Source: a bacterium
GTDB lineage: Bacteria > SAR324 > NAC60-12
Assembly: GCA_965205865.1 (NCBI GenBank)
Contig: CBDBHR010000025.1
Coordinates: 96,001-160,000, forward strand
Length of the DNA: 64,000 bases
Direction of reading: 5' to 3'
Below, one piece after another: positions 5,417-53,085 of this stretch. The translations under genes and the position numbers were made by a program. Each line of letters begins with the position of its first letter. Positions within the stretch are counted from its first letter, which is position 1. A model generated the notes under the pieces. That model worked only from the letters and a program-made list of their open reading frames with translations, searched no databases and had not been told where the DNA came from.

Positions 5417-5666
5417 ATACTCTCTTCCGGGAATGGAAGGTCAATATTGCGATCCTTAGTATAGCCGCTTCCGGTAGACTAGAGCGACCGTACCATCATT
5501 CCAAATCTCAAGAACGGAAGGGCAATGAGAAATTTGGAATATCATCGACGCATGAGTGTGTCATTTTTTGTTCATTATTTTTTATATGGAGAATCCTATG
5601 TCGAAATCACTTAAGCAGAAAATGAATTTTTATTCCTTCAACCTGAATAAATATAAAGGAGGACGT

Positions 5667-12386: not shown

Positions 12387-12889
12387 TTATACTCTTTTGG
12401 ATATTAATTGCAATCAAAAAATTTGACATCATTTTGCTTTTAAAGTAAGAAAGGCGATTTTCTTTGAATCGATTTTATCATTTGTAGCCATGAGCTTGAG
12501 AAAAGTACTCTTGATTATCGAGACAGAATAGATGAAAATAATGAAAAATTTCTGTTCACTGTGACAAAAAGTATGCCAATACTTTGATTTTTCAAAAAAA
12601 TGTAGCCCCGCACGCGAAATTTTATTTCTGAGCTAAGCCAGTAAATACAAGGGGTTGATCCATTTTTAGTTCAGAAGGTGGGGCAAAAAAATCAAAAAAA
12701 AGGCCCCAGATGCATTTTTTGTATTGATTTATCTATAATAATTCACTAGGGTCACCATATAGGTTCTTGAGGGAAGAGGAAGTGAGTTGAAGTGAAACCG
12801 ATTCCGCTTCCTCAGGGAATCTTTCTGTATTTCATCCTATCTCAATGAATCAGATGGGGAATTTTATCCTTTAAATAATAGGAGAACAT

Positions 12890-14620
12890 ATGTCTTTAAA
12901 AAAATGGATAACTCTTTTGGTGGGGCTGACCCTGGTGGGGGTCTTGTCTCATGTGTATGCGCAATCCTATGGGGGCTACATCAATGTTGCGGGACGGAAT
13001 GTTTCCGCTTGTTGGCAGCCCGTCCATGTCAGTGTTTGTATTGAGAAACAAAGCCTACTCACTGATTACCTGTTAGAGTCGGACTTAACAAAGGGGCCGC
13101 GAGGTACCGGTGAATTTACATTCGCTAACCAGTCGAACTATTCACTCAAAGGATTAAGAGGCTCTTTGCTGGAATCCTGGGAACAGCCGACTGCCCATAG
13201 TCTGGTTTTTAAAGTGCGTAAGGGCATCCACTTCCATAATAAACCCCCCGCAAACGGCCGAGAACTGAATGCTCGGGATATTGTACGCGACTGGGAAATC
13301 CTTACCGCCGATACAAGAGCCGGCGGCTTGTATGAAGCGCACAAACTCTCCAAGTGGACTGCCCGGGATGACTGGACGATTGATGTGGAGATGGTCGAAC
13401 CGGATGTTCCCGGAATCTGGGCGCAGGATCTCTTGCTGATAGCCATTCCGGCACCCGAATGGAAGGAGATCGAAGACAAAATGGATGATTGGCAGACGGT
13501 GAAAAACAGTGGGATCTTCACGGGACCCTTTCTGCTGGAGGATCATGTCGACTTGAGTGTGACCACCTACAAAAAGAACCCGGACTATTGGGGGAAGGAC
13601 GTCTTCAACACGGACGATCAAGTCCCCTACGTGGACGGCATGAGGATCGTAGATTTTGCCGATTCGGCGGCAAAAACGGCAGCCTTGCGCTCCGGCAAGC
13701 TGGACATCATCAGTATGTTTGGTCTGAGTGGCGAGGAAAAAGATGCGGTGGAGAAGACGAACCCTGAAATAAAATATGTCCCCGGCTTCGTCATGGGCCT
13801 CTTCACTTTTGTGAGGGCCGATTTGCCGCCTTGGAACGATATCAGGGTCCGCTATGCGGCCCATATGGCCATCAACTACGAAGAAGTTCGTGACGATTTT
13901 TACAAAGGCAACGCTTGTTTCCCCAGTTTACCTCAAAATTGTTCGGTCGGGGAACGCCTGGGAATGGATTGGCTGAAGAAATACCGCCCTGACCTGGCCA
14001 AGCTGTTTGAGTATCACCCCGATGAGGCCAAAAAACTGCTGGCCGATGCGGGCTATCCCAATGGCTTTGACACCGAATTGATTGTCGCCCATAGCTGGGT
14101 CGAACATTTCGAATTGATGTCCACTTACCTTGAAGATGTCGACATTCGTGTTACTTTGAAGCCGGTGGAGCAAACCATGATGTATTCCAGCATTCACCCG
14201 GGACCGGAAGGGCCGGATGATAAAGTCTACACCGGTATGGGTGCTCATGACACCGGGTGTAATAACCTCAACTTGGCGTGCTTGTCCAAGTGGCACGGGG
14301 CAGACGCCCCGTTCTTCGGCCAAGGTTTTATCCAAGGCACGATCCCGGACAATAAGATGCGGGCCTTGCAGAACGCCTATAAAAGCGAGACGGACCCCAT
14401 CGAGTCCAGGCGTATCTGGACCGAATTGTATCTCCTGTGGTATGAACTGGCCTGGGGGATTAATTGGATGGGCGTGAATACGTATAACCACTGGCAGCCG
14501 TGGGTTCAAGGATATGAAGGTGCCGGCGGGTACGAATCGCCCAGACTTAACCTGGTCAAGTACTACTGGATTGACACAGACATGAAGAAGCAAATGAGCG
14601 GACGCGACCCGAATGAGTAA
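12890..14620 (+). CDS. ABC transporter family 5 solute-binding protein 2 (intact)
   Basis: Signal peptide, LLESWE, RKG..FH.KPP..GREL, GPF, KNPDYW, EAKKLLA.AGYPNGF. Confidence 0.95.
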   Translation: MSLKKWITLLVGLTLVGVLSHVYAQSYGGYINVAGRNVSACWQPVHVSVCIEKQSLLTDYLLESDLTKGPRGTGEFTFANQSNYSLKGLRGSLLESWEQPTAHSLVFKVRKGIHFHNKPPANGRELNARDIVRDWEILTADTRAGGLYEAHKLSKWTARDDWTIDVEMVEPDVPGIWAQDLLLIAIPAPEWKEIEDKMDDWQTVKNSGIFTGPFLLEDHVDLSVTTYKKNPDYWGKDVFNTDDQVPYVDGMRIVDFADSAAKTAALRSGKLDIISMFGLSGEEKDAVEKTNPEIKYVPGFVMGLFTFVRADLPPWNDIRVRYAAHMAINYEEVRDDFYKGNACFPSLPQNCSVGERLGMDWLKKYRPDLAKLFEYHPDEAKKLLADAGYPNGFDTELIVAHSWVEHFELMSTYLEDVDIRVTLKPVEQTMMYSSIHPGPEGPDDKVYTGMGAHDTGCNNLNLACLSKWHGADAPFFGQGFIQGTIPDNKMRALQNAYKSETDPIESRRIWTELYLLWYELAWGINWMGVNTYNHWQPWVQGYEGAGGYESPRLNLVKYYWIDTDMKKQMSGRDPNE

Positions 14621-20660: not shown

Positions 20661-20810
20661 TAAAAGATTAAAAGGTCGATAAGTTCATCAAAATATATCA
20701 ATTCAGGTGATTGCAATTGAAACAAAGCTAATAAAAAACTGAACCGAAGCCTGAACACCGCGCATTTTGCTCCGATTGTTGTGGATTACAAGCACGTAAT
20801 TTATCTTTCA

Positions 20811-23880: not shown

Positions 23881-23894
23881 CAGGGTCGCGCCTC

Positions 23895-23984
23895 TTCACA
23901 TCCTCCCGGGGTATTGTTCAATCGATCGAGCGGGAACCCTCCCACAGCTAATTTTGAATCAAACGAGCGGAAGTCCTCTCCTTC
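23895..23984 (-). repeat. Partial copy of the IS66-end hairpin motif
   Basis: Reverse complement of about 26354-26445 and 36225-36310. Confidence 0.85.
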
Positions 23985-25318: not shown

Positions 25319-26569
25319 AGGTGCTCCTAAATTTATAGAATTTAAATTTTGGATGGTCTCCCTCTTGAGTGTTGTTACCCTGAAAACCAGGGGAAACGCA
25401 CCGGAAAACACCGTCTATTTGCAAAATACCAACACTCCGGAGGGTGAATTTTGCTGAGAACAGGCACCAACACTCCAGAGGGTGACTACCGAAATTTTGG
25501 GGATACGGTAACGGTTTCCATATTAGGCTCCTGTGATCGATATTAGAATGGTATTACTAATAATCTATCACCATATCATAATACGTTCAATCTTAAAAAG
25601 ATTAAGGGATCAAATATTAAATTTTCTTTTGAAAAAGACAATTTAATATTTGATCCCTTTTGACCCCTTTTCAAACCGTTTAGTTTTGAGAAAATTCCCC
25701 TGAAAATATAGTTTTCTGTCAGGCGCTAACTCCAATCATTTCTAATACTTTCTATCCATTTCTTGATTTGGAACCTATTCTGAGATATTTTGAATACTGG
25801 GATAATATTCAAATCTTTGTTTGAGTTTCAGAGGGCTCACTTATTTTACAGATTAAATTTTTAATGTTGGATTGAGAATTGAAGCTCTCGAAGCAGAAAA
25901 TAAGCAACTCCGGGACCGGCTGGCTCTCAACAGCCAAAACTCGAGTAAGCCACCATCCACCGATGTAAGTCGCAAGAGCAAAAGTTTTTGATTTCCCCTC
26001 TCTGCAATGAGAGGTTACCGAACACCAAGTGGAACAAAAAATTTACTCGATCGTTTGATCCTCTATGAAAAGGAAAGCTTGTTATTCATGCATGACTTTC
26101 AAGTTCCTTTTGACAACAACCAAGGAGCATGCTTACCCATGATTTACCTCCCTGGCAAAGCGTTTACGATCATGATCGCCGTTGGAAAAAACGCTGGACT
26201 GTGGAGCGAACATTCGCTTTTTGGCTCATGCCGGAGATGGACCACAATATATTTTTATAGCTGATCACCATTGTTGCGCAATTCTCCTGATCCAAACTTG
26301 CTATAGGCTTTGCGCCGCGTAGTAGTGCTGAAATCATGCCTTGTTGTTTCAGGGAAGGAGAGGACTTCCGCTCGTTTGATTCAAAATTAGCTGTGGAAGG
26401 ATTCCCGCTCGATCGATTGAACAATACCCCGGGAGGATGTGAAAACGATGGATCCTTGCCGGGAATCTTTTTTCAACGTTATTGAACTGAACGGCTTCTG
26501 ACTGTCCCCGGATTTGAGCAGATTTATTGTTTTTTTTTGCGAATCCTGCATTTATTTTATATTAGGGGG

Positions 26570-26598
26570 TTGACATTGCGTTGTTGTTGTACTACAAT
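26570..26598 (+). promoter_or_regulatory. Sigma70-type promoter within the IS66-end module upstream of operon 3
   Basis: TTGACA-17 nt-TACAAT. Confidence 0.65.
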
Positions 26599-26599
26599 C

Positions 26600-26715
26600 A
26601 TGCCATCATTGAGTTGTTTTAGTGAATGAGAAGGTTCCCGATCGATTGAACAATATCGTGGGAGGACTTAAAAACGATTGATCTTCCCCGGGAATCTTTT
26701 TTAATGATATTGATC
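26600..26715 (+). ncRNA. Candidate structured RNA/leader (IS66-end motif)
   Basis: Long stem with compensatory changes relative to copies at 36478 and 32960. Confidence 0.4.
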
Positions 26716-26852
26716 TAAACGGGTTTTTCAGAGACCTGAATAGTTACCATATTTTTTATTCATTTTTTCATAAGGAGAGTACCATGTTGAAATCACGCAA
26801 GCGGAAATGGTCCGCCTATTTTCCCCAATCATTCTCTATAAATGGAGGACAT

Positions 26853-28613
26853 ATGAGTAATATCTTTAAAAAAATGATGACCTTGTTGGTTGTGTTGTTG
26901 GTAGCAGGCGTGGTGTCTGCTGCGGAAATGGTGACGTTGAAACTGAAGAAGCTCGATGGCACAGAGATCACCAAAGAAGTGGAGAAACCGCAATATGGCG
27001 GTTCCATTACCGATCTCATGAGAGCGGGAGAACCCTCCTTTGACCCGCTGCTTTTGGTGGCGATGGCCCATGCCGTCCCACCGATGTATGACGGGCAATT
27101 CGATACGAACTGGTATCGAGGGCCTGCCGGCACTGGCGAGTTCACCTATAACACCACAGTGACGCCCCCAGCGTCCCTCAAAGGCGGTGTCATCGAGACT
27201 TGGGAACAGCCCTCGCTCACTAATATGATCTTTCATATTAGAAAGGGTATTCACTACTGGAACAAAAGTGACGTGCTGCACCCCAATGATCTATTGGAAT
27301 CGGCCTATGGCCGGGAGTTAGATGCGTCTGATGTCGAATATAGCTGCAATAATATGTTTGTGAATGATAAGTCCCCCCTGAATGGGTATGGTGGGGGAAA
27401 ATGCAAGGCTACGGACAAATGGACGGTGGAATTCACATGGGATGAACCGGACGGCCTCGGGAAAATGATCCGTTTTTATACCTTTCAACACGGAGTATAC
27501 CCGAAGGAAACCGAGGGCATCAACCTGGGTGACTGGCAGAATGCCATCGGGTCCGGCCCCTTCATCCCGACAGGCTTTACCGCTGGCAGTATTGCCACCT
27601 ACAAAAAGAACCCGAACTACTGGGACCATGACCCCCTTCATCCCGAAAATCAGTTGCCCTATCTCGACGGCATGAAAATGATTGTGTTTTCAGATTGGCC
27701 GACGCACATCGCGGCCCTGCGCGCCGGCAAGATTGACAAAATTGCCCCCTGGTATGGGGTCATGCCGAATTATGTGGCAGAGCTGTCAGAGAGCAACCCT
27801 GAGTTGATGCACGTCCCAACCACAGGAGATCAAAGGCCGATCGAGGTGCGGCTCGATGTCAAGCCGTGGGACGATATCCGGATACGAAAAGCCGCCATGC
27901 TTGCCCTCGATCACCAGGGTATCGTCGACGAATTCTTCGAAGGCAGCGGGGAGATACTAACCAGCTACAGCTTCAAGGTGAGCGACCCCTTTCACCATTC
28001 ATTAGAGGAACTCCCTCCGGATCTCCAGGAAAATTACGGGTATGACCCGGAAAGAGCCAAAAAGCTACTTGCCGAAGCCGGCTTTCCCAATGGGTTTGAT
28101 ACCTCCATCACCTGCAAGGACGACCAGTGTGAGTTGGTTGAATTGTATGCAGCCTACCTTTCCGCTGTCGGGATTCGGGCCGAAGTGATACAAATGGAAG
28201 CCGCTGAGCATAACTCCATGTGGAATCAATATAAGTGGCCCGAGTTGGCCAGTCAGGACTCAGGAAGCCCAGGAATCGCAGAGTGGTTGGCTTTCGCCGG
28301 AGAGATCAACCCAGGCCAGGGCCATGTGAGGCCCATCGAAGACCCGGAATGGGAAAAAATGTGGCAGAGCTATTCCACAGATACGGACCGTGACAGCCAA
28401 CTGGTGAAATGGAAAGAGTTGAATATCTACACGCTCCGCAAACTGTGGAATATCCAGACAGTAGCCGCAGTTCCACACAACTACTGGCAGCAATGGCTGA
28501 GGAATTACAGTGGGGAACAGGGCGTCCATGAGACCTTCTGGTATATTAACAAGTTCATCTGGATTGACTGCGACATGAAGAAAGAAAGAAGTGGCCGGGA
28601 CTGCAACGATTAG
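26853..28613 (+). CDS. ABC transporter family 5 solute-binding protein 3 (alternative start 26784)
   Basis: Signal peptide, KPQYGG, GSGPF, KNPNYW, AKKLLAEAGFPNGF. Confidence 0.95.
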   Translation: MSNIFKKMMTLLVVLLVAGVVSAAEMVTLKLKKLDGTEITKEVEKPQYGGSITDLMRAGEPSFDPLLLVAMAHAVPPMYDGQFDTNWYRGPAGTGEFTYNTTVTPPASLKGGVIETWEQPSLTNMIFHIRKGIHYWNKSDVLHPNDLLESAYGRELDASDVEYSCNNMFVNDKSPLNGYGGGKCKATDKWTVEFTWDEPDGLGKMIRFYTFQHGVYPKETEGINLGDWQNAIGSGPFIPTGFTAGSIATYKKNPNYWDHDPLHPENQLPYLDGMKMIVFSDWPTHIAALRAGKIDKIAPWYGVMPNYVAELSESNPELMHVPTTGDQRPIEVRLDVKPWDDIRIRKAAMLALDHQGIVDEFFEGSGEILTSYSFKVSDPFHHSLEELPPDLQENYGYDPERAKKLLAEAGFPNGFDTSITCKDDQCELVELYAAYLSAVGIRAEVIQMEAAEHNSMWNQYKWPELASQDSGSPGIAEWLAFAGEINPGQGHVRPIEDPEWEKMWQSYSTDTDRDSQLVKWKELNIYTLRKLWNIQTVAAVPHNYWQQWLRNYSGEQGVHETFWYINKFIWIDCDMKKERSGRDCND

Positions 28614-28794
28614 GACTGGCCTGAACCTTTCCCCCCTCACCCTCCAGGGGCCATGCGTGTCGGGTTAAGGCGTAATCCTCATATTTTCCCCCTTTTGCAA
28701 AAAGGGGACTTTCTCTTAACCTGACACCAATATCCCTGGTAAAAGAGGGAGAAAATAAGACAGGTGTTCGTCACTTTCAGAAGAGAAAAATCGG

Positions 28795-29829
28795 ATGCAA
28801 TCGTATATTATCAGAAGACTGCTCCTGGTGATCCCCACCCTCCTCATTGCATCGGTGGTCGTCTTCTTCAGCGTGCGTTTCATCCCAGGCGATGCCATCG
28901 ACTTGATGGTGCCCAATTTTGCCCAGTTCAATACAGGACGTGAGGATGTGTGCGGGGGCTCTTTCATTAGCGATAAAAAGAAGGAGACGGATTCGACAGA
29001 CAGTGAGGACTGCAAGGACCCCCGTGACGCGCTGAGGAGCCATCTGGGGTTGGACCAGCCCAGTCATGTTCAGTACGGGCGGTGGTTGGCCGGGTTGATG
29101 CAAGGGGACCTGGGAAAATCCATCTGGACCAATATTCCCGTCCTGGAAGATATCCTGATCCGACTTCCTGTTTCCATTGAATTGACCCTCCTGACCATCA
29201 TATTGTCCTTAGTAATTGCGTTGCCCGTGGGGATCTATTCCGGGATTCGGCCTGAGACCAACTCGGATTATCTTTTGCGGAGTTTTGCCATCCTCCTGAT
29301 CACCGTGCCCTCATTCTGGGTGGCGACGTTGGTCGTGGTACTCCCGGCCCTCTGGTGGCAATGGACGCCCCCGATTGCCTACATCCCGTTTTTTGACGAC
29401 CCCATCGGGCACCTGAAAATGATGCTCCTCCCGGCGGTCGTCATGGGGATGTTGTTCTCCGGAGGGACCATGCGTATGACCCGCACCATGATGCTGGAGG
29501 TGCTCCGGCAGGACTATGTGAGGACCGCCTGGTCCAAAGGGCTTCGGGAGCGGGTGGTGGTCTTGAGGCATGCGCTGAAGAATACCCTCATCCCGCTGGT
29601 CACCATCCTGGGATTGCAGATCCCCTACATGATTGGCAGTGCGGTGATCATCGAGCAGATTTTTTCGCTTCCCGGCATCGGCCAACTCATGTTCAACGCA
29701 CTGACGCGTCGCGATTATCCGATGGTTTCCGGCATCAATATCACCCTGGCGTGCATGGTACTCCTCATCAACCTGCTCGTGGACCTCAGCTACGCCTGGC
29801 TGGACCCGCGGATCCGGTTAAATAAATAA
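28795..29829 (+). CDS. Opp/Dpp-type ABC permease B
   Basis: PGDAID, DYVRTAWSKGL, RDYP. Confidence 0.95.
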   Translation: MQSYIIRRLLLVIPTLLIASVVVFFSVRFIPGDAIDLMVPNFAQFNTGREDVCGGSFISDKKKETDSTDSEDCKDPRDALRSHLGLDQPSHVQYGRWLAGLMQGDLGKSIWTNIPVLEDILIRLPVSIELTLLTIILSLVIALPVGIYSGIRPETNSDYLLRSFAILLITVPSFWVATLVVVLPALWWQWTPPIAYIPFFDDPIGHLKMMLLPAVVMGMLFSGGTMRMTRTMMLEVLRQDYVRTAWSKGLRERVVVLRHALKNTLIPLVTILGLQIPYMIGSAVIIEQIFSLPGIGQLMFNALTRRDYPMVSGINITLACMVLLINLLVDLSYAWLDPRIRLNK

Positions 29830-29895
29830 CGGCTAGTTTTTTATCGTAGGAAGTCCTCTCCTGGGAGGGGAATCCCTCTTAATTAGAAAAAACAT

Positions 29896-30858
29896 ATGGC
29901 CTTAGAAACTGAATTGTTGAGCGCCGAAATAAGCACCTCTACGAAAATAAGTGGGCTGCGGGTTTTTTTTATCCGGTTGTTCCGTGAGAAAAAAATAGGA
30001 GCCCTCGGGGGCTTGCTGGTCTTGATATTTCTGCTCGTCGGCATTTTTGCGGACTTTTTGGCCCCTCACAGTATCGATAAATTCAGTATTCGCCACAGAC
30101 TGGACGCACCCTCCGCGGAATTCATCCTGGGGGCAGACCAACTCGGACGAGACGTTTTCAGCCGGGTCATCCACGGTGCCCGAATCTCGATGACTGTGGG
30201 GTTGGGCGCCAGTGGTCTCCATATTGTGATTGCGGTGCTGCTCGGCCTGATTTCCGGCTACTGGGGCGGGAAGTTTGACATCCTCCTGCAACGGCTGGTC
30301 GATGCCTTTATGACCTTTCCCGCGCTGTTCATCATCATCACCTTCATGGCGGTTTTGCCCCGGGGGATGGTGTCGGTCATCATTGTGATCGGAGTGTGGT
30401 GGGGGATCAACGGGACTCGCATCATTCGAGGCGTGGTGCTCAGTGCTAAGGAAAATGTGTATGTGGAGGCAGCCCGGGCGGTGGGCTGTGGCACCTGGCG
30501 CATCCTCTGGCGGCATATCCTGCCTCAATTGGTCGCACCCATCATTGTCATGTTCACCATTGCCCTCGGTGGCGCCATTCTCACCGAAGCCGAAATCAGT
30601 TTCCTCGGATTCGGCATTCCGCCACCCCAGCCCAGTTGGGGCGGCATGCTCAGTCTGGAAGGCCGCAAATATATGCTGCGAGCCCCCTGGTTGGCCTTGT
30701 GGCCCGGGGTCTGTCTGGCCATTGTGGTCTTTGGCATCAACATGTTCGGCGATGCTGTGCGCGACCTGATCGACCCCCGACTCAAAGGGGGTTCCGGACG
30801 CTTCGGCGCTGCGAAGAAAGCTGTCCGAAAGTTTTATAAGCAATTGCAAAAGATCTAA
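29896..30858 (+). CDS. Opp/Dpp-type ABC permease C
   Basis: LGADQLGRD, YVEAARAVG, SFLGFG. Confidence 0.95.
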   Translation: MALETELLSAEISTSTKISGLRVFFIRLFREKKIGALGGLLVLIFLLVGIFADFLAPHSIDKFSIRHRLDAPSAEFILGADQLGRDVFSRVIHGARISMTVGLGASGLHIVIAVLLGLISGYWGGKFDILLQRLVDAFMTFPALFIIITFMAVLPRGMVSVIIVIGVWWGINGTRIIRGVVLSAKENVYVEAARAVGCGTWRILWRHILPQLVAPIIVMFTIALGGAILTEAEISFLGFGIPPPQPSWGGMLSLEGRKYMLRAPWLALWPGVCLAIVVFGINMFGDAVRDLIDPRLKGGSGRFGAAKKAVRKFYKQLQKI

Positions 30859-31318
30859 TAAAATGAAAGGAACCCCATGACTACCCAAGATTGGAAAAGC
30901 CTAATTGATCAAAAGAGTCTCGGTGATAAAAAGGGATAAATCATGAATAAGAAACTAAGGTTCGGAATAGTCGGAACCGGCTTAATCGCTGGTTTCATTG
31001 CTAAATCGATAACCACATCGAAGGGGGCCACGCTTACAGCAGTTTCTAGTCGCAAGCAGGAAAGCGCTCAGGCTTTCGTGAGCGATATTGAGGGTGCTGC
31101 AGCGGTCGAAGGGGTTGAAAACCTGCTAGCTCGACCCTAGCCGAAAAGGGTTTCGAAAATAGTAAATGTAACCAATTTGATTCTATTTGATTCAATATGA
31201 CGAGAAAACGATTTTTTTGTTTTTTATTCGCCCACAGCACAGTTTTTATAGGGAAAAAATCTTTTTTGGACATACTTTCCTCGCCCCTGCTCATATTTCA
31301 CACTCCCCCATTGAATAT

Positions 31319-32848
31319 TTAGGCCGCTTGTTTGAGTTGTCTTTTTTTCAACTCAATCATTTTGCAAAAATTATAGGTTAATGCTTTTTCCAGCAACTCT
31401 GCCCGAACGTTTTCAATCCCTCTGCGCATAACTTGTCCGAAATGGAAACGATGCTTAAGATGAAACATCAACGACTCTGCAGCAGATCTTCCATTTCGTG
31501 ATTCCAAATAGATTTCACTTTCCCATTCTTCAATCGGGGTCATCTTTTTTCCCTTTGCCCCACTAATACTAAAAACCTTAACGCCTTTGCCCATCCACTT
31601 TTCTCTGATCGCCTGATTGGCATATCCATCATCAAGGCTCACTTCAGAGGGAATGGTGATGGTGCATCGCAAATGTTCAACAAGGGCAGGGTCGAGTTGC
31701 CCTGAATCAGCAGCATTGCCCTCCGGAGTAATTAACACGGAAATAAAACCATTTCCGCTCCTTCCTAATTGAGGCTTATATCCGATAAGCGCTTCTCGAT
31801 CTCCCTTTTGAATATAAGCCGAGCTCTGATCGGAAAGACTCAATACTTTCTCAGTAGAAGGAACCTTCTTTTCTTCAAAAACTCTTTGATGACAGTAGAT
31901 GATTACCCGTTGCAAATTAGAAATATCTTCATTCATCATTTCAATGAGGCGAATCAAACGCGTTTTCCGAGAAGGGGGGAGAAGAGCTTTTTGGGCACGG
32001 ATATCCACCTTTGCCATTTCTTTTAAAAATTTCCCATGAGCGCTTTGAGCTTTCTTCAATAGGGTTTTGTAATGTTTTTTTCGCTTCGTTTTACTGTCCT
32101 TTTTACCTGTCTCAAAAGCAATCATCTTAGAGAGCTTATTCATCTCCTTGATGAGGAAATCAAAATTTCTTTCACTGATCTCAGCGATTCCAAATGTATC
32201 AAGGGAACGCCCTCGATGGTAGCTTCGCTCCACGAGACGAGTCAATATCGACGAATCAGTAGGCCAAGCTGTATTTCCTTTTACAGAGGTGCTATCCAGT
32301 TTTAAAATATCAAAATCGTCCAACTCTTCATCGAGAACCATTCGAATTTGAGCATCGAAAATAAACTGTCTGCTCTCGTTGCTGACAGCATTGACATTAT
32401 CAAGGATTGTACTCGCTCCCGGCATTTTCAATCCACGGTTGAGCAGAAGCAGATGCAGTGTGATTGACTCTGAAAGAAATATTTGGGCCGTTTGGGATTT
32501 GATACTTCCTAAATATCCCCGAATCATCATAAAAAGGTAGACTAAAAAAGCCGACATCCGAGGACACCCTATTTCCAGCCTCAGTTCTTCCGGCTTCAAT
32601 TCCTCATCTTCTACGGGAAGATGAGGAAGCCATGGATTCCGGGCTTCCTGCCATCGTTTATCCTCTAAACGCTCTTTCTTTTTATTTCTTGCGTATTTCT
32701 CCAAATCCTGTTCAATTTTGTCCAATATCTCCGGCTCTCGCTCAGACAATTGATCAAGTTCTGATAAGAAATTTTCAAATTCTGTATCAGGAGCGCTTAA
32801 AAAAAGATGTTTTTCTGCTCGAATGAATGGTTTCATTTTGGGTGCCAT
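31319..32848 (-). CDS. DDE transposase (ISNCY/IS5-like), 509 aa
   Basis: LDST.V..N..WPTD, LDDGY, R...ES....LK motifs. Confidence 0.85.
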   Translation of the reverse strand: MAPKMKPFIRAEKHLFLSAPDTEFENFLSELDQLSEREPEILDKIEQDLEKYARNKKKERLEDKRWQEARNPWLPHLPVEDEELKPEELRLEIGCPRMSAFLVYLFMMIRGYLGSIKSQTAQIFLSESITLHLLLLNRGLKMPGASTILDNVNAVSNESRQFIFDAQIRMVLDEELDDFDILKLDSTSVKGNTAWPTDSSILTRLVERSYHRGRSLDTFGIAEISERNFDFLIKEMNKLSKMIAFETGKKDSKTKRKKHYKTLLKKAQSAHGKFLKEMAKVDIRAQKALLPPSRKTRLIRLIEMMNEDISNLQRVIIYCHQRVFEEKKVPSTEKVLSLSDQSSAYIQKGDREALIGYKPQLGRSGNGFISVLITPEGNAADSGQLDPALVEHLRCTITIPSEVSLDDGYANQAIREKWMGKGVKVFSISGAKGKKMTPIEEWESEIYLESRNGRSAAESLMFHLKHRFHFGQVMRRGIENVRAELLEKALTYNFCKMIELKKRQLKQAA

Positions 32849-32938
32849 AATTCTTAATATTGAAGTTATTCAGAGTTATTTCAATGAATTATGGCACTTT
32901 TTAACCTCAAGTTTAAAGATATAATTCTAAAAAATACC

Positions 32939-34900
32939 GTAACTATTTAGGTCTCTGAAAAACCCGTTTATTAAATATCGTTAAAAAAGATTCCCGGAGA
33001 GGATCGATCGTTTTCAAGTCCTCCCACGATATTGTTCAATCGATCGGAAACCCTCTTCTTTCATAAACACAACTTAACGAAGACGTGATTATAACACAAT
33101 AATAATGTCAACCCCCCAAGGCAAAATAAATGCGGGATTCAAAAAAAAAGTAACTATACTCTGAACGGGTTTAAATTTCACTTTTCAAAATTCCTGTTAT
33201 TCCGAGCTAAAGGGGCTGCCTAAGCAAGAATCTCATGGGAATCAAGAAGATCCTTCGGTTCCCTCAGGATGACAAAAAAATGAAGAAATCATATGTTCAC
33301 AGTATATTTAGGTCCTTTATGGGGACCTTAATTATAAAGGAGTTGCCAGAGGATGCAAAGCCTGAGTGAGCAAATCGAGGATGGATTTTCCCTGTTTTCT
33401 GGTAGTGGAAATGGCTCCCCGGATGATACAAAAAGCCTGAGATCCTTCAGCCGTTCGAAAGCCGCCGGAGATTTTTTGTTTCAGTTTAACCATGCGCACA
33501 TCTCGCTCGGCTTGGTTGTTGTCAAAAGGAACCCGGAAGTCATCCATGAATAACAAGTTTTCCTTTTCATAGAGGATCAAGCGATCGAGTAAATTTTTGG
33601 CTTTGCTCTGTTTGGGGCGTCCTCGTTTCTTTGTTTGAGGAGGGGGAGGATAGAGCTCAAGGGCTTCTTGGGTGATATCACGATAGCGTTGCCGGAAGTG
33701 ATCTAGTTGGACTGGACTCAAAGCAGATTGTTCTTTGAACTTGGCTTGGTCTACTTGCTTTTTGATCTCTACCAGTAAGTCGCTCATCTCCTGAGCCCAC
33801 AAGGCCTTTTCTTGTTGATAGGCCCGAGAGAGTTCACGTAAATGATGCGCATTGCAAAAGCCATGATCACACTCATAATGCTGGTAGCTCTCCCAGTGAT
33901 CATGAATGGCTGTCTTTTCAAACTGAGGCAGGATACCGGCGGCATCCATTCCGGCTTGACCCCGTTTGTCGTGGATAAAATAAAAGGTCAGCTCTTCGGT
34001 AGAGGCTGAATGAAGCCAGCGACGTTGTTTGTTTTCAAACAGAGAGGTTTCATCAAAATGAACCACCTCCGATTGAATCAGAGCTTCAGCCACTTGTTGT
34101 TGGAAGGGATAAAGCCTATGGGCGGCTTGCTGGAGGCTAGCATAAATCGTGGCCGCATTGAGCGGCTGGCCGAACAGATCCTCAAAAAATTGCTGGCATC
34201 GATCAAAGGGCAGAAACTGATATTGATTGAGATAAACCGCTAAGCCTTTGATCCGGGGACCATATTGAGTGGGTGCCTTTATCCCTGCTGGAAAGCTCGA
34301 GTGATTCAGATGCCGGCAGCAGGGACAAATTTTTTGTTCCACCTGGTGCTCGGTGACCTCTAATTGGAGCGGGGGAAGATCAAACACTTGGCGTTTATGC
34401 CTCGCCTCAACCACAACCTGGGATAAATCTTCTCCACAGGTTTCACAGGTGCTGGGAGAATGGGACTCCACCTGATCCGGTGATTCACTGAAAGCCAAAT
34501 GATGGCCTCTATGACCGGGTTGACCTCCGCGAGAGCGACCCCTGCTTTTACGTAAGCTTTTGTTCTTTCGACTTTGATCGGTGGAAGGAGGTTTACTTGA
34601 GTTTTGGCTGTTGAGAGCCAACTGATCCCGAAGTTGCTTATTTTCTGTTTCGAGAGCTTCAATACGCTTATTTTCTATTTCGAGACGTTCGAGGAGTTTT
34701 AATCGCTCTTTCTTCCATTGATCCCGTTCTTCTTCAAAGAGTTGACAGGCTTCTTGAAGAGCCTCAAGGAGGGAAGTCGATGAAATGGAATTAATATATT
34801 TTTTTTGAAATTTCGAGAGCATAAAATCCTTCCTGAATTTTATGCTATGCAAATTCCGTGCTTAAATCGAAGGGGTCTCTAAAGAAACCTAAATAGTTAC
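32939..34900 (-). mobile_element. IS66-family element (single-gene, ISBst12-like) with an extended right end
   Basis: GTAACTATTTAGGT IRs; 8-bp TSD AAAATACC. Confidence 0.92.
33332..34852 (-). CDS. IS66-family transposase
   Basis: NSSKPPS, GGQPGH.G, zinc finger, HFDET, C.AH.LREL, FDNNQAER. Confidence 0.93.
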   Translation of the reverse strand: MHSIKFRKDFMLSKFQKKYINSISSTSLLEALQEACQLFEEERDQWKKERLKLLERLEIENKRIEALETENKQLRDQLALNSQNSSKPPSTDQSRKNKSLRKSRGRSRGGQPGHRGHHLAFSESPDQVESHSPSTCETCGEDLSQVVVEARHKRQVFDLPPLQLEVTEHQVEQKICPCCRHLNHSSFPAGIKAPTQYGPRIKGLAVYLNQYQFLPFDRCQQFFEDLFGQPLNAATIYASLQQAAHRLYPFQQQVAEALIQSEVVHFDETSLFENKQRRWLHSASTEELTFYFIHDKRGQAGMDAAGILPQFEKTAIHDHWESYQHYECDHGFCNAHHLRELSRAYQQEKALWAQEMSDLLVEIKKQVDQAKFKEQSALSPVQLDHFRQRYRDITQEALELYPPPPQTKKRGRPKQSKAKNLLDRLILYEKENLLFMDDFRVPFDNNQAERDVRMVKLKQKISGGFRTAEGSQAFCIIRGAISTTRKQGKSILDLLTQALHPLATPL

Positions 34901-36445
34901 AAAATACCTTAAAATACCTTTTCGGCTAGGATCTAGCTCGTGAGGACGTGGATGCCGTGTATGTGGCCACTCCAACCTCTGCGAAAGAAAGCATCACCCT
35001 TGCCGCGATTGCGGCAGGGAAGCATGTTCTCGTTGAAAAGGCATTCATTAATTGTGATTCGGTGAAACGAATGGCCGCAGCGGCGTCGTCCCAAAACGTG
35101 CTGTTCATGGATGCAACTCACTTTGTGCACCACCCCCGCACTGAAGCGATCCGGCAGGAGATCTCCAACTTGATTGCATCCCCTCTGTCGCTTCACACGA
35201 CCTTCTGCTTTCCATTCTCAGATCGAAGTAACATCCGCTTTGACCCCACCCAGGAACCGGCAGGTGCTCTTGGCGACATGGCATGGTACCCGATGCGGGC
35301 TGTTGTGGAATACCTGCAGCCGCCAGGAGAATTGACTACGGTTGCTGCGGTGGCGGAGCGAGACGCCGAGACCAAGTCGGTTATCCGCCTCACAGGTCTA
35401 GTCGGTTTCGCAAGCGGTGAAGCATCGACATTTGATGTTGGTTACACTGCTGGCGCAGTAGTATATGATCTTAGTTTGCTGGGAACGGCAGGCATGATCG
35501 TGTTGGATGATTTTGTGCTGGATTGGAACAACAGTTTTTTATTCCAGAACCCGGACATCAAGTGCGGTTACATTCACCGAAAGGGAATGGCTACTCGTCA
35601 GGATTTTACCTTTATCGAGACCCCTTCGAAAGTTCCAGCAGATGTGTTGATGATCGAATGCTTCACCGATCTCGCAAACTCAAATGACCGCTCCGCTCAG
35701 ACCATTTTCACAGACGCCTCACTGCAAACCCAGAGTTATCTCGATGCAATATGGGAGGCAATTAACCAAGAGTGACAGCTACTCATGTGGAATTGCCAAC
35801 ACCTGTGAAGCCTGTGGGAAAGATTTATCCAAGGTGACGGTTGAGGCCACGCTCAAACGTCAGGTGTTTGATCTCCCCTCTCTGCAATGAGAGGTTACCG
35901 AACACCAACCCCTGCGTGGCCAAAAGTATTCATAGCAAACATAGCATCGTCAATGCGATTTTGTATGTCCTGAAAACGGCTTGTCAGTGGAGAATGCTTG
36001 GCCATGATTTACCTCCCTGGCAAAGCCTTTACGATCATTATCGCCGTTGGAAAAAACGCTGGACTGTGGAGCGAACATTCGCTTTTTGGCTCATGCCGAA
36101 GATGGACCGCAATATATTTTTTTATAGCTGACCTCCATTGTTTCGCAATTCTCCTGATCCAAACTTGCTATAGGCTTTGCGCCGCCTAGTAGTGCTGAAA
36201 TCATGCCTTGTTGTTTTAGGGTAAGGAGTGGATTTTCGCTCGTTTGATTCAAAATTAGCTGTGGGAGGGTTCCCGCTCGATCGAATGAACAATACCGTGA
36301 GAGGACTTGAAAACGATGGATTCTTCCCGAGAATCTTTTTTCAATGTTATTGAACTGAACGGCTTCTGACTGTCCACGGATTTGAGTAGATTTATTGATT
36401 TTTTGTTTTTTTTTGCGAATCCCGAATTTATTTTACATCAGGGGA

Positions 36446-36473
36446 TTGACATTGCATTTTATTGTATTATAAT
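36446..36473 (+). promoter_or_regulatory. Sigma70-type promoter within the IS66-end module upstream of operon 4
   Basis: TTGACA-16 nt-TATAAT. Confidence 0.7.
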
Positions 36474-36477
36474 ATGT

Positions 36478-36585
36478 CTTCGTTAAGGTGTTTTTAAAGA
36501 AGAGGGTTTCCGATCGATTGAACAATATCGTGGGAGGACTTGAAAACGATCGATCCTCTCCGGGAATCTTTTTTAACGATATTTA
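36478..36585 (+). ncRNA. Candidate structured RNA/leader (IS66-end motif)
   Basis: CGTTAA/TTAACG, GAGG/CCTC and CGATCG/CGATCG nested stems. Confidence 0.4.
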
Positions 36586-36693
36586 ATAAACGGGTTTTTC
36601 AGAGACCTAAATAGTTACAGGATATTTAACTAAACGGGTTTTTCAGAGACCTGAATAGTTACCTTCAACCTAAATAAAATTAAAGGAGAAATT

Positions 36694-39600
36694 ATGTGGA
36701 ATACGAAAAAAATGGCAGCCCTTTTAGGAGGACTGATGCTGGCAGGCGCTTTTCAGACGGTGCAGGCCAAAGATTGGACGGGTGAGGATATGACTGCGTA
36801 CGCAAAGAGTCAGGGGAAGCCCGTCTATGGTGGGATCGTGGTGGATTCTGGCAGGGGGTATACCTCCAGCTTTGATCCGCTCATTCATCCTTCCGAGAAT
36901 GAGGTGACCTGGGGTATTTATGAAGCCTTTTATGCTCCTGATATCACCAAGGGACCGCGGGGTAGCAACGAACAACGGTGGTCGACTGAATTCATTAGCA
37001 AGGATACATCCATGGGCATTTTGGCCGAGTCTTGGGAACAAGTGGATCCCACCCATTCGAGGTGGAAGATCCGCAAGGGAATCCGCTTTTGGACGAAAGA
37101 TAGTGTGGTGAGCCCCAATCCCAATCTGGAGTCGGCCTATGGGAGAGAGCTCAATGCCCGTGATATATTGAAAATCTGGGAGGTCTCGAAAAATGAGGAG
37201 AGAACCCAATGGTACCTAAATCCTGCAATTGAATATTTTGATTGAGTTTCCCCCCACTCTTTGAGAGGTTTTTTTAAAAAAAAGGATTTGAGAGTTGAAT
37301 TTCCATCAGTCCTTGCTCATAAAGGTTTTTCCGCCCTCCATTAGATCGTTATATTTTGTGATGATCTGATACCCGCTTTCGCGGGCACAAGATTCAAGAC
37401 GTACTTCTCCCTGGATTTGGGAATCTACATCTCAGCAAAATGTATCCACTGGAGTGAAACAAAGGTTCTAGGTCTCTCCAACAGCGACCCATGCATCCCA
37501 TTGAGCATTGTAAAGTGTTCTTTCCGGAACTCTCAGTTTTTGTTGACGAGCGCCACTCGTCCATTTTCCTGCCATTCGGACAAGATAGGTGCGCATGGTG
37601 GCCGGTTCCCAACGGCGCAGTATTGCGTTACCACTACAAAGGGCCATCCAGCGCAGCGTGTTGTAAGCGAGTATCGCGCATTGGAACAAGGCACTGTTGG
37701 CCCAAAAATCGTCGGTTTTAATCTGAGCCAGCGCAGTTTGATTTTTTGCTTCCTCAATCCATGTCTCAGCGACCGCCCTTTGGCCATACTCTTTGTGAGC
37801 CTGCCAGGGAGTGAGCGCGTCAGTGAGAACATAACAAAAATAATCGTACTCCTTCATCTCAAAGAGGGTGGCCATCCCTTTGAGTTCCTCCTCTTTCTCC
37901 CTGCGTACGGCCATGAATTTTCTTGACCTCCTCCAAGTTTCACATTGGTGGGAAAACTCACACCCTTCCCAAGCGGGCTGCCCCTTCACTTTTTGCCATT
38001 TTTGGGTTTCCAACAACGAGACAAGCCCCTTGAGTTTGACCTTGATCAGATAGCCATGGCCTCGTTCTTCGAGGAAATCCAGCAAATCCCCCACAAAAAA
38101 ACCACTGTCTCCACGAAACAGAGTGCGAGTCCGATTTGGAAGGTGAGCGAGAAGTTGCCGCATGAATTCAACGACTCCATTGCTGGTATAGGCACTCCCA
38201 TCACGAAGCCAACCCTGAAGAATCTCCTTTGTCTCTGCGCAAAATGCCAGCAGAGGATGATACGAAGCTGCACCGCGTTTGTGGGGATTATATCCGACAG
38301 ACACTCCTTGCTGCTTGCCGTAGGCCGTTTTCACAGTGGAGTCCACGTCAATCACAAGACAGTGTAACACCCCAACGATGCTTGTCCCACTTCGAAGCGC
38401 CTTACGCCAGATACCGGCTCGAATCCGATGGTTCAAGCTCTCCATCTCATTGATGTTTTTCTGTGTGAAAGTACGCAGTATCCGGCCGAATGTGGTTTCA
38501 TCCGGAATCCTCAGCCAACCGGCCACACGACTCAAAACACGGTCGTTCCAAACTGTCACAATCGAACGAATCGAACGGGCGCCACCAACAATGCCGACCA
38601 CCGACAAAATGACCATGTCCACCGCGTCATAAAGACCCGTGGCGCCACGCCGATGATCTACGGTCTGCTCTGTCTTTGAAACAATCCCTTCTTTGTGAAA
38701 AAATTTGACAACCGGAATCAAGCCTGCTTGCGCGGTCAGGTCTCTGCCTCCCTGGCTGATATGGATGTTTTTTGCTGTCGTTCTTGCCGATCTTGCGCTA
38801 CATGGTAATGGTGATCTCTTAAAATTTGTTTTTCATGGTAATGGTGATCTCTTAAAATGTTGATTCTGATGCTGTTAACTATTTGAGTATATTACCATTT
38901 CCAGGGGGTGTTTGATTGTCATCTAATTGCAGGATTTAGGTGGTATAATTCCGAAAAGGATTGGGTATGGAAAGCTCCGGATGATTGGACCATCGAAGTG
39001 GAGTGGAAGGTACCGGATGCGACGGGATGGTTATGGAAGATTTCAGCATTGATGCGCATCACGGCCCCTGAAATGTATGAGAATGACATCAACACCGAGG
39101 ACTTTAGAAATGCCTTGGGCACAGGTGCCTTTATTCCAACAGAAGATCTCCCGGGCAGTGTCACCACCTTCAAAAAGAACCCGAACTACTGGAACGTGGA
39201 TCCCTTTTACCCTGAAAACAAATTACCTTACCTGGACGGGATGAAGATTGTCCAGTTCGCTGAGAGTCCGGCAAAGGTAGCGGCCGTACGTGCCGGCAAG
39301 CTTGACCTGGTAAAACAATTTCCCATTATTCAGCCGGATGTCTCGAGCCTGGAGCAGTCCCACCCCCAGGTAAACCACATCGCATTACGAGGGTGGCAGC
39401 GCAGCTTTTTTGTGAGGGTCGACTTGCCACCCTGGAGCGACCTCAGGGTCCGGCGTGCCGCCATGCTGGCCGTCAACCACGAAGAAGCGTTGCAGGAGTT
39501 TTACCAAGGGTATGCCCATTATCCCTCTTATCCTTCGGAAAAAGGGATGGCACCTCAATACCTTGGCATGGATTACTTGAAAGAGCACCGCCCGGACCTG

Positions 39601-40239
39601 GCCAAGCTGTTTGAGTATCACCCCGAGGAGGCCAAGGCGCTGCTCACCGAAGCCGGCTATCCTGATGGTTTCGAGACCACCATGATCATCCCTGCGGATT
39701 GGCAGGAAGATGCGGAACTGTTTGCCGGCTATCTCGAGGAAGTGGGCATTCGGGTGACATTCAATGTGATGGATATGAGTGTTTATTACTCCTCAACGAT
39801 GACCCCAACTCCGGATGATTCTATTTATACCGGGATGGCGATTACTGATTCCGGCGCGCCTGGTGGTGGCTTGACAGATACCATGAAGTGGCACCATGAC
39901 CCCCGGGCCCCGCTGCCCTGGTATGGCGATCCTGATGCACCAACCGCACCTTCTGAGACACGGTGGCAGGCTGAGAAAATGAAGGCATTGCATGATTCTC
40001 TGAAGCTCGCTCCGAATCGAGAGGAGTATCAGCGCGTCTGGTACGAACTGTACCACCATGTCTACGAAACGTTGTGGAATTTGCCCTTTATGGCCCTGGA
40101 CCAGCATTTATACTGGCAACCCTGGGTCAAGGGCTTCATGGGGGATATCGGTTTTGGGGCTGGCTACTACAACAACTACTACATGTGGATTGATGCCGAT
40201 GAGAAGAAGCGGCTCAGCGGACGAGATGCGAACGAGTAA
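36694..40239 (+). pseudogene. ABC transporter family 5 solute-binding protein 4, interrupted by IS1380
   Basis: 36694-37214 and 38941-40239 rejoin across TSD TGGTA. Confidence 0.92.
37215..38940 (-). mobile_element. IS1380-family element, copy 3 (damaged 5' end, premature TAG)
   Basis: IRs; TSD TGGTA; duplicated CATGGTAATGGTGATCTCTTAAAA; ORF 37468-38721. Confidence 0.93.
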
Positions 40240-44416: not shown

Positions 44417-45370
44417 GTAACTATTCAGGTATCTTCAGAGAGCCCTTCGATTTAAGCACGGATTTTTCATTGCATGAAATACAGAAAGGATTTTATGCTC
44501 TCGAAAGTTCAAAAATATATTGATTCCATTTCATCGACTCCCCAGCTCGAGGCTCTTCAAGAAGCCTGTCAACTCTTTGAAAAAGAACGAGAGCAATGGA
44601 AGCAAGAGCGCTTAGAACTCCTCAAACGTATTGAAGTTCTCGAGACAGAAAATAAGCGTATTGAAGCGCTCGAAGTAGAAAATAAGCAACTTCGGGACCG
44701 GCTGGCTCTCAACAGCCAAAACTTGAGCAAGCCACCATCCACCGATGCAAGTCGCAAGAGTAAAAGTTCAGGTAAAAACAGGGGTCGCTCTCGCGGAGGG
44801 TTCCCACACGATCGATTAAACTATATCGTGGGAGGTCAACCCGGTCATAAAGGCCATCATTTGGCTTTCAGTGAATCGCCAGCTCGTATGGAACCTCATT
44901 TTGTCAACACCTGTGAAGCCTGTGGGAAAGACTTATCCAAGGTCTCGGTTGAGTCCACGCTTAAACGTCAGGTGTTTGATCTCCCCTCTCTGCAATGAGA
45001 GGTTACCGAACACCAAGTGGAACAAAAAATTTGTCCCTGCTGCGAGCATTTGAATCACTCGACGTTTCCGGCAGGGGTGTCAGCACCGACTCAATATGGT
45101 GCGAGAATCAAAGGCTTAGCCGTTTATCCGTAGCACTATCAATTTCTCCCCTTTGAGCGATGCCGTTAATGCTTTGAAGATCTTTTCGGCCAGTCTCCCA
45201 GCGTAGCCACGATTCATGAAAGCCTCCGGCAAGCAGCCCATTCGCCGCATCCCTTGCAACAACAAGTGGCTTTGATTCAATCCCCGCTCGTTCATTTTGA
45301 TGAAACGTCTCTGTTTGAAAACAAACAACGTCGCTGGCTTCGCTCGGCCTCGAGCAAGCAGATGACTTTT
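44417..45370 (+). mobile_element. Degenerate IS66 copy (left IR plus broken transposase)
   Basis: GTAACTATTCAGG; homology to 33332-34852 with stops and frameshifts. Confidence 0.88.
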
Positions 45371-45371
45371 T

Positions 45372-52312: not shown

Positions 52313-52640
52313 GATTTAAAATTAGAAAAAACAAATCCAAACAATCTGCAGAAAAATGCAATAACAATTAATGATTGGGAAAAATAGGCGAATCGTTTCC
52401 GCTTTATGTTGATCTCCTGATGAAAAAATGAACGAAAAAAGGACAGGGATCCATGATTTTCCAAATTCCCCCTTGCCCTTCTTTTCCCGGAATTTGGAAC
52501 TTGGAATTTAGAACTTGGAACAAGGAATCTCAAGGATCTCTCCCTGAGGTCGAGATAACATAAGAGGGTAGAACCCAATGAACCTGTACAGTTGGGCCTT
52601 GGGCCTTGGGACTTGAAATTCGGGCCTTAGAACCTAATAC

Positions 52641-52910
52641 TTGGGACTTGGGACTTGGGACTTGGGACTTGGGACTTGGGACTTGGGACTTGGGACTTGG
52701 GACTTGGGACTTGGGACTTGGGACTTGGGACTTGGGACTTGGGACTTGGGACTTGGGACTTGGGGGACTTGGGACTTGGGACTTGGGACTTGGGACTTGG
52801 GACTTGGGACTTGGGACTTGGGACTTGGGACTTGGGACTTGGGACTTGGGACTTGGGACTTGGGACTTGGGACTTGGGACTTGGGACTTGGGACTTGGGA
52901 CTTGGGACTT
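52641..52910 (+). repeat. Heptamer tandem repeat (TTGGGAC) x about 38, one unit with +GG
   Basis: Direct reading; degenerate heptamers at about 52490-52520 and 52592-52640. Confidence 0.97.
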
Positions 52911-53085
52911 ACTTGGGAATTAATTTTACTCGCATATCAACCTCTTTTCAAGATTTTTTTAAATTTGACTACTCACCTGATTGCCCTTCGCTTCTTGGGA
53001 ATAGATATTTAGAAGCTATTTGGATAAAAAATTGCATTTCTTCTAATTTTCATTTTTTTTAAAAAGAGATTCAGAGACTATCTTG

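Follow-up and report, generated by a model that had tools for sequence, protein, structure and literature searches.

A putative promoter-leader cassette at the right end of an ISBst12-like IS66 element recurs upstream of importer genes in a SAR324 bacterium

Insertion sequences (ISs) can activate neighboring genes through outward promoters, as do ISEcp1, ISAba1, and IS10 (pOUT). Promoters are also spread by the Correia elements (NEMIS) of Neisseria. These intergenic repeats, short and present in many copies, bear promoter elements and are transcribed together with the genes that follow them, forming a hairpin in the 5′ leader RNA; they are miniature inverted-repeat transposable elements (MITEs), bounded by a terminal inverted repeat on either side and lacking a transposase gene. 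A third kind of repeat, the BOX element of Streptococcus pneumoniae, is built as boxA-boxB(n)-boxC with a variable number of internal units, and to our knowledge it has neither a parent IS nor a consensus promoter. Outward promoters of IS3, IS5, and IS21 family members were demonstrated with trap plasmids in Paracoccus (PMC3281130). In the literature that we searched on IS66/ISBst12 outward promoters and on SAR324 transposases, no IS66-family outward promoter and no cassette of the kind described below was reported. Here we analyze a stretch of 64,000 nucleotides (nt) from a SAR324 bacterium of the NAC60-12 lineage (assembly GCA_965205865.1, contig CBDBHR010000025.1, positions 96,001 to 160,000 of the forward strand; hereafter the window), in which the right end of an intact IS66-family element consists of promoter-like boxes, a leader, and an inverted repeat (IR), and the same module stands before genes for family-5 solute-binding proteins (SBPs) of ATP-binding cassette (ABC) importers. 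The explanation that we favor, and hold to be moderately probable, is that this module, the right-end tail of a genus-confined ISBst12-like IS66 element, acts as a portable promoter-leader cassette that has been kept at SBP genes after decay of the transposase and multiplied by nested self-insertion.

The module resembles the outward-promoter ISs in that a sigma-70-type promoter near one end faces outward, the carrier is a member of a standard DDE family, and a co-oriented insertion would supply transcription; it is unlike them in holding a predicted structured leader of ~110 nt with a U-run inside the IS, in its modular, accreting tail, and in its presence at ~40 loci of one paralogous family. 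With Correia elements it has in common that it is short, high-copy, and promoter-bearing and has a leader hairpin, whereas the tails have the right IR only, are part of a full IS, and occur together with decay intermediates. Like BOX, it is a modular intergenic repeat whose internal unit varies in number; the unit is 36 nt long, is bounded by GGGAGG, and is present in one to four copies per module. In contrast to BOX, the parent IS of the module is present. The order promoter, structured leader, U-run, gene, with the closing stem of a junction abutting the U-run, also recalls the attenuators and riboswitches found before ABC-importer genes, from which the module differs in having no Rfam family, in its restriction to one genus, in being carried by an IS, and in covariation that is not significant. 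IS-borne outward promoters are themselves well known; the present case stands out by its scale and strict orientation, by the predicted structured leader and U-run built into the element, and by modular accretion.

The window is rich in repeats, with several paralogous ABC-importer cassettes, each composed of a family-5 SBP gene and two permease genes, and several ISs. The carrier element and its parts are as follows.

32939..34900, minus strand: intact IS66-family (ISBst12-like) element, 1962 bp (Pfam, sequence, and target-duplication check).
34869-34900: left inverted repeat (IRL) of the element, reading GTAACTATTTAGGTTTCTTTAGAGACC... from 34900 inwards.
33332-34852, minus strand: transposase open reading frame (ORF) of 506 amino acids (aa), with DUF6444, zf-IS66, and DDE_Tnp_IS66.
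33178-33149, minus strand: inner IR-like sequence (pseudo-IRR), from the sequence.
32939..33148, minus strand: B module, ~210 nt, from sequence and fold.
33148-33140, minus strand: T9 run opening the B module.
33111-33106, minus strand: −35 box TTGACA, followed by a 12-nt spacer.
33093-33088, minus strand: −10 hexamer within TGtTATAAT, followed by a leader of ~105-110 nt with a predicted 5′ hairpin.
32988-32983, minus strand: six T after the leader.
32970-32939, minus strand: right inverted repeat (IRR), 32 nt, reading GTAACTATTTAGGTCTCTGAAAAACCCG... from 32939 inwards.

On the minus strand, the transposase stop is followed by ~185 nt that end in the inner IR-like sequence, and then by the B module, whose putatively structured stretch with GGGAGGA, a predicted three-way-junction hairpin, spans about 33059-32989; the arrangement of promoter, motif, and IR that the preliminary description had placed at this end was thus borne out. 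Pfam domains were found in the transposase (PF03050 at 8.4e-47, PF13005 at 2.9e-09, PF20042 at 4.2e-11), and among ORFs of at least 60 aa its frame is the only long one in the element, the others (66-100 aa) overlapping it. A single ORF between the IRs, without TnpA/TnpB accessory genes, is what we take to be the mark of the ISBst12 group. These domains, the single ORF, and target site duplications (TSDs) lying outside the module bear out the proposed tie to an ISBst12-like element, for which table 4 of PMC8024623 gives the ISsaga label 'IS66 / ISBst12 / DDE'. IRL and IRR have GTAACTATTTAGGT and further positions in common, and an 8-bp target duplication, AAAATACC, flanks the element at 32931-32938 and 34901-34908. 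Because this duplication encloses everything from IRL to IRR including the B module, the module lies inside the mobile unit. The layout of a MITE, with two terminal IRs and a target duplication, was not found: the modules end in IRR only, and their 5′ side is either a T-run after an older IRR-like end or transposase remnants.

The same module recurs upstream of two SBP genes in the window, SBP3 and SBP4.

25875..26126, plus strand: IS66 transposase fragments (aa 63-99 and 405-448) upstream of the A-B tail of SBP3 (tblastn).
26340..26540, plus strand: A module before SBP3, with a degenerate promoter, two 36-nt core units, hairpin and U-run, and a degenerate IR-like tail.
26541..26747, plus strand: B module before SBP3, with −35 at 26570-26575, 17-nt spacer, TACAAT at 26593-26598, hairpin and U-run, and IRR at 26716-26747.
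26784..28613, plus strand: SBP3, a family-5 solute-binding protein (Pfam).
28795-29829 and 29896-30858, plus strand: permease genes after SBP3.
36208..36410, plus strand: A module before SBP4, homologous to B, with a degenerate promoter and two 36-nt cores.
36411..36662, plus strand: B module before SBP4, with −35 at 36446, 16-nt spacer, TATAAT at 36468-36473, and two tandem IRRs at 36587-36618 and 36631-36662.
36694..40239, plus strand: SBP4 gene in two pieces, 36694-37245 and 38908-40239, split by a 1.5-kb DDE_Tnp_1_4 IS at 37214-38722.
23882..23984, minus strand: truncated A-type copy, 92% identical to 26354-26456, abutting a RES-domain ORF.

As had been proposed, the B module precedes both genes, each time after a homologous, promoter-less A copy, and the IR joins a homologous native leader at different points, before the segment ataaggagagtaccATGttgaaatca at SBP3 and between ttcc and cttcaacc at SBP4. 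The five copies first described are real; the count was too low, since the window holds six, the additional one at 23882-23984 on the minus strand, and the genome far more. Within the window, the 32-nt IR occurs four times with at most one mismatch, and not at all in 100 shuffles. IS66 transposase fragments lie upstream of both A-B pairs, which are therefore decayed IS copies with surviving tails. The likely true start of SBP3 is the ATG at 26854, as judged from its ortholog in the sister species introduced below. Separately, a fragment with a match to DUF4096, the N-terminus of an IS4/IS5-type transposase, lies between transposase gene and tail at 35841-36131, at 26007-26264, and in the sister species at L011:4200-4270, so the IS66 tail also bears debris of another IS.

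A profile of the module core gave 158 matches on the genome, which merge into 93 loci, 53 of them with a recognizable IRR. Full-length or near-full transposase copies number nine, with 94-100% aa identity, and fragments are many more. The tails of the intact copies vary in composition (B alone, A-B, A-B-B, and A-B'-A'-B). Identical 8-mers stand outside the IRL and the outermost IRR in six of the eight intact copies with a recognizable IRL; the ninth has no detectable IRL. A sister species of the same genus, represented by one closed contig, has IS copies with 91% protein identity and the same layout, one of which (L011) is enclosed by the target duplication TCCCAGAC. These duplications, present in both species, bear out the claim that the cassette is IS-borne and transposes with the element. 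With a covariance model built from 59 B modules of both species, we obtained at least 73 matches in the sister species. As for wider distribution, blastn in 41 relatives detected the module in 2 only and in none of the other 39; likewise, the covariance model matched 2 of the 45 family genomes, which belong to a single genus, and none of the other 43, and it gave no match beside 76 IS66 transposase genes of other phyla. Since many of these genomes are incomplete, absence reads only as not found in those searched; among the genomes searched, module and carrier are restricted to one genus. Two further repeats were seen in the sister species. Upstream of an SBP ortholog, a promoter-like TTGACA/TATCAT site is immediately followed by a run of about 13 copies of the heptamer CACCCGG (L170:2640-2760, minus strand), and around the tail before the SBP3 ortholog there are three copies of a different short repeat, which contains the palindrome tcattcctggcttgaccaggaatcc and is probably a small mobile repeat in its own right (L092:740-1040 and 1320-1440).

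The association with SBP genes is strong. The genome has 161 ORFs homologous to SBP3, and the start of such a homolog lies within 600 nt downstream on the same strand at 41 of the 93 loci (32 of the 53 with an IRR), whereas 20,000 random placements gave 1.2%. When the genes are taken as the starting point, a module lies in the same orientation within 400 nt upstream at 31 of the 117 large SBP ORFs; at not one of them is there an upstream module on the opposite strand, and no module lies downstream. The IRR commonly ends tens of nucleotides from the SBP ribosome-binding site, and the flanks vary by locus. When the SBP3 orthologs of the two species are compared, the tails sit at different points, the sister species having an older, decayed IR nearer the gene; moreover, the leader of one SBP is IS-free in the sister species, whereas in this genome an intact IS precedes the gene. 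The differing junctions and flanks, together with the differing tail positions of orthologs, thus indicate independent insertions and not inheritance by gene duplication. Of the 41 SBP-adjacent loci, 5 have an intact transposase, 12 have fragments of it, and 24 have no trace that could be detected, whereas the proximal module is full length in 31, as opposed to 18 of the 52 loci elsewhere, a class that takes in weak partial matches, some of them within transposase genes of a second IS66 subfamily. These counts sustain the proposal that the cassette outlasts the transposase at SBP genes. As a separate observation, two conserved short reading frames precede many SBP genes (window 5590-5670 and 26784-26856; L172:2300-2440, minus strand). 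The first begins M-(L/S)-K-S; the second, MY(L/F)K(K/R)FLARFVGL..VSAAK, has ~29 codons in one locus and is in frame with the SBP gene in another. They may be leader peptides or N-terminal extensions.

How the tails grew can be read from the intact copies. Their target duplications are T-rich (GATTTTTT, GGTATTTT, CTCAATTT, ATGATATT, and GTTGTGTT), and three of the six duplication-bearing copies sit in older modules: one in a T-run (GATTTTTT), one in a 5′ hairpin (GTTGTGTT), and one in ATGATATT just before a resident IRR. Nested self-insertion therefore explains the tandem A-B, A-B-B, and IR-IR arrays; in particular, insertion into a ATGATATT-type site right before a resident IRR, of which contig C29 of the same genome has an example at about 143k, yields the tandem IRs seen before SBP4. 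The 36-nt cores are also arranged head to tail with a period of 36 in up to four copies (C30:1020217-1020418, C28:462329-462482, and C30:672718-672933), an arrangement that is reminiscent of boxB multiplication in BOX elements. The core was found outside the tails as well, in the second IS66 subfamily, which has ~70-75% protein identity and of which all copies seen are truncated. The window contains one such copy:

44419..45371, plus strand: decayed IS66 of the second subfamily, whose transposase frame holds the 36-nt module core at ~44796-44831, in frame and flanked by GGAGG.

In this subfamily the core lies in frame within the transposase gene, with GGAGG on both sides, and adds 12 residues within a GGQPGH stretch; further sites are C17:4394-4436, C23:611-653, C25:257557-257599, C28:64486-64528, C28:116481-116522, and C30:489679-489721. 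One possibility is that the piece of tail entered the coding region by a template switch between GGAGG repeats.

The T-rich targets and the insertions into older tails would also be expected if the module were a selfish repeat with no function for the host, that is, IS debris that prefers T-rich DNA upstream of genes and its own older copies, whose boxes serve the element and whose link to SBP genes reflects target choice. Fifty-two of the 93 loci are not beside an SBP gene, five of the nine intact and hence recent copies are already in front of one, and the spacer lengths of the promoter look unconstrained. Furthermore, joining of IS ends is known to create junction promoters in other IS families, and because the transposase ATG is only ~80 nt inside the IRL, an outward promoter at the IRR could read into the transposase after such joining in a circular or tandem intermediate; no IRR-IRL junction or circle turned up here, although none was looked for. 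We nevertheless consider this explanation unlikely, as an orientation bias of 31 to 0 at SBP genes is hard to obtain from target choice alone and, despite loss of the transposase, the modules are complete more often at SBP genes (31/41) than elsewhere (18/52).

Turning to the promoter, the best sigma-70 matches in the 11-kb region scanned are those of the two operon copies, at 36446 (12 of 12 consensus positions) and 26570 (11 of 12). TTGACA and TAnnnT boxes could be scored in 32 of the 38 distinct B modules in this genome. Of these 32, 24 have an extended −10 (TGn, as in TGnTAnnAT), as do 11 of the 14 scorable modules of the sister species; such an extension could lessen the dependence of the promoter on spacing. 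The spacers of the 32 modules measure 12 nt (2 modules), 13 (2), 14 (7), 16 (12), 17 (4), and 20 nt (5), and in the sister species the commonest length is 21 nt. This variation is due to short trinucleotide repeats in the spacer, (GTT)2-4 giving a 14/17/20 series here and (GTA)n an 18/21/24 series in the sister species. The preliminary description had set spacings of 17 and 16 nt in the operon copies against 12 nt in the intact IS; the three values are correct, but the contrast fails across the genome, where intact IS copies range from 12 to 16 nt and SBP-adjacent copies from 13 to 20 nt. For the same reason we rejected the idea that spacing was optimized in domesticated copies. SBP leaders that are free of any IS have (GAT)3-5 between −35-like and −10-like boxes (C29:461300-461412, C29:468370-468478, C30:808950-809062, and C30:705738-705850), so trinucleotide repeats in the spacer are common to SBP leaders of this genome and are not a feature of IS tails alone.

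The leader itself plausibly folds into a structured RNA. RNAalifold, run on 59 B leaders of both species, predicts a three-way junction preceded by a small 5′ hairpin; the stem that closes the junction, GGGUUCCCG/CGGGAAUC, is extended by purines that pair with the U-run and abuts U6. In this fold 98.0% of 1817 cells pair, compared with 97.5% when columns are shuffled, the covariation score is 0.141 versus 0.132 (0 of 500 shuffles as high), and 15 cells have double changes versus 6.0 (0 of 500), with the caveat that sequences may outscore all shuffles through relatedness alone, with no structure present. Compensation is clearest at pair 16-30 of the 5′ hairpin (CG in 37 sequences, UA in 9, UG in 9). 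Five pairs are G-U in most sequences, and the fold therefore fits RNA of the sense strand only and not a DNA cruciform. The helices originally put forward as covarying fared worse on this alignment: CGTTAA/TTAACG is 83.4% paired versus 82.8% in shuffles (107 of 500 as high), with one pair broken in 38 of the 59 sequences, and the local 5′ hairpin explains this region better; GAGG/CCTC is 91.1% paired versus 90.3% (44 of 500) and is not register-specific. Covariation is weak, and the claim of a covarying structured RNA is not supported as stated. A single long hairpin of GAUCGAUUG with CGAUCGAUC was a poorer fit than the three-way junction, mainly owing to sister-species variants; its helix is 93.8% paired, with one pair broken in 21 of 59 sequences. 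That the motif lies outside the described Rfam families did hold: no match reached the gathering score in the window, and with E up to 5 only one unrelated, weak match appeared within 26000-37000. A simple terminator scan (loop of 3-8) makes no call on the outer stem and U6, because the stem encloses a branched interior of 50 nt. A coding reading of the module was set aside, as its short reading frames differ among variants through insertions and deletions, judged by eye.

Parts of this leader occur without the IS, as in the window at SBP2:

12700..12890, plus strand: IS-free 'mini-leader' of SBP2, with promoter-like boxes, a purine-rich arm, a hairpin, and '...CAGGGAATCTTTCTG'.

It has the outer stem of the module but neither the 36-nt core nor an IRR. 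Besides SBP2 (~12700-12890), IS-free leaders of this kind were found at eight further loci and at one sister-species ortholog; in common with the module they have 'AATCC...ATTTAT' before the −35 box, a purine-rich arm, and 'CCGGGAATCTTTT', and they are without the 36-nt core and without a good IRR. A search for the mini-leader pattern in 45 genomes, many of them incomplete, found it in 2 only, both of this genus. The stretch after their U-run resembles a decayed IRR in the columns of a mafft alignment, compared by eye, and this is a hint that the leaders are old IS tails.

These leaders open the opposite direction of descent, in which a native cis-regulatory RNA of the SBP/ABC-importer family, either riboswitch-like or a protein-dependent attenuator with the outer stem as terminator stem, was captured and spread by IS66. 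In both species the IS-free leaders have the purine-rich 5′ arm, the 'CCGGGAATCUUUU' 3′ arm, and 'AATCC...ATTTAT' without IRR or core; promoter, structured RNA, U-run, and gene stand in the classic order of an attenuator; and the three-way junction is predicted in most copies, with most stem substitutions compatible with G-U pairing. However, in the genomes searched, many of them incomplete, blastn, the covariance model, and the mini-leader pattern found nothing outside one genus, Rfam gave no match even at E up to 5, and covariation is not significant on robust measures. In addition, a single aptamer for some 40 importers of diverged specificity would be unusual, and the stretch resembling a decayed IRR fits descent from old IS ends better. 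We therefore regard capture of a native RNA as quite unlikely. A bolder idea, which we put forward as improbable, is that the tail is a mobile transcription attenuator, whose three-way-junction RNA, with the closing stem as terminator, would respond to one cellular signal (a ligand or a protein) and, distributed by an IS, would join some 40 otherwise unrelated ABC-importer operons in one regulon, with the output of each copy varied by the trinucleotide repeats of its promoter spacer.

Evidence from RNA libraries consists of contigs from four metatranscriptome runs, in which carry-over of DNA is possible. The module is present in all four runs, and in each of them contigs continue beyond the end of the IRR at 26747 into sequence that matches ribosome-binding regions at other SBP genes of this genome; contigs that span tail and SBP gene fit co-transcription. 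A multicopy gene for a small RNA, a terminated transcript of ~105 nt acting in trans through an exposed GGGAGG/CCUCC or on the transposase mRNA, is very unlikely: promoter, structured RNA, and U-run would form a self-contained unit and summed depth over the module exceeds that of its flanks in four of four runs, but this depth, summed from contigs over a repeat of ~90 copies, says nothing about level, the contigs continue past U-run and IRR into SBP genes, and no target in trans turned up, no target search having been made.

We return, then, to the portable promoter-leader cassette, for which a sequence of events can be proposed. Insertion of the IS would sever an SBP gene from its native promoter, so that only co-oriented insertions, which supply the tail promoter, would keep the importer expressed and be retained, and the tail would turn into the promoter and 5′ leader of the operon. 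The hairpin and U-run would then probably act as a leaky terminator, an attenuator, or a stabilizing 5′ structure, and the hairpin of the promoter-less A unit would probably block read-through from the transposase gene. The trinucleotide repeats of the spacer may vary promoter strength from copy to copy.

Several observations weigh against this explanation. A spacer of 16-17 nt is present in only 16 of the 32 scorable modules (12-14 nt in 11, 20 nt in 5), so that many copies may be weak as promoters if the extended −10 does not make up for it. If efficient, a hairpin and U-run after the promoter would prevent expression of the very gene that this promoter is proposed to drive. The RNA contigs give no start, end, or level, depth over a repeat of ~90 copies is summed, and neither the depth figures nor the gaps in cover over SBP3 are a measure of expression. 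As for the fold, pairs with a double change number 5 versus 3.4 in shuffles (86 of 500), which is weak covariation, folding z-scores are modest (−1.2 to −3.7 relative to shuffles, −3.66 for the SBP3 B module), and the high pairing may reflect mere recent common descent. The outer stem and U-run also occur in the IS-free leaders, so that descent may have run from IS to leader or from leader to IS. Finally, the ~35-fold enrichment at a single gene family may be more than selection can account for by itself, and the five of nine intact copies already at SBP genes point to target preference or homing into older tails.

Two other repeats in the window are recorded here. The 1.5-kb DDE_Tnp_1_4 IS that splits SBP4 is present in four copies, 99-100% identical (10879-12387, 20810-22318, 37214-38722, and 46990-48368), and a tandem array with a 14-nt period extends over 52538-52966, with 19 overlapping register copies.

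Promoter donation by ISs is mostly known from single events, for example the switching on of resistance genes. In this bacterium, a single IS lineage seems to have provided promoter and 5′ leader for roughly one in four members of a very large importer family (31 of 117 large SBP genes), with all stages of carrier decay still visible and with a built-in accretion of units by nested self-insertion. If the tail is indeed transcribed as proposed, the case would illustrate clearly how an IS can, in nature, rewire expression throughout an entire paralogous family, and the tail could be studied as a compact, portable unit of promoter and leader; were the hairpin regulated, the tail would be a mobile regulatory RNA.

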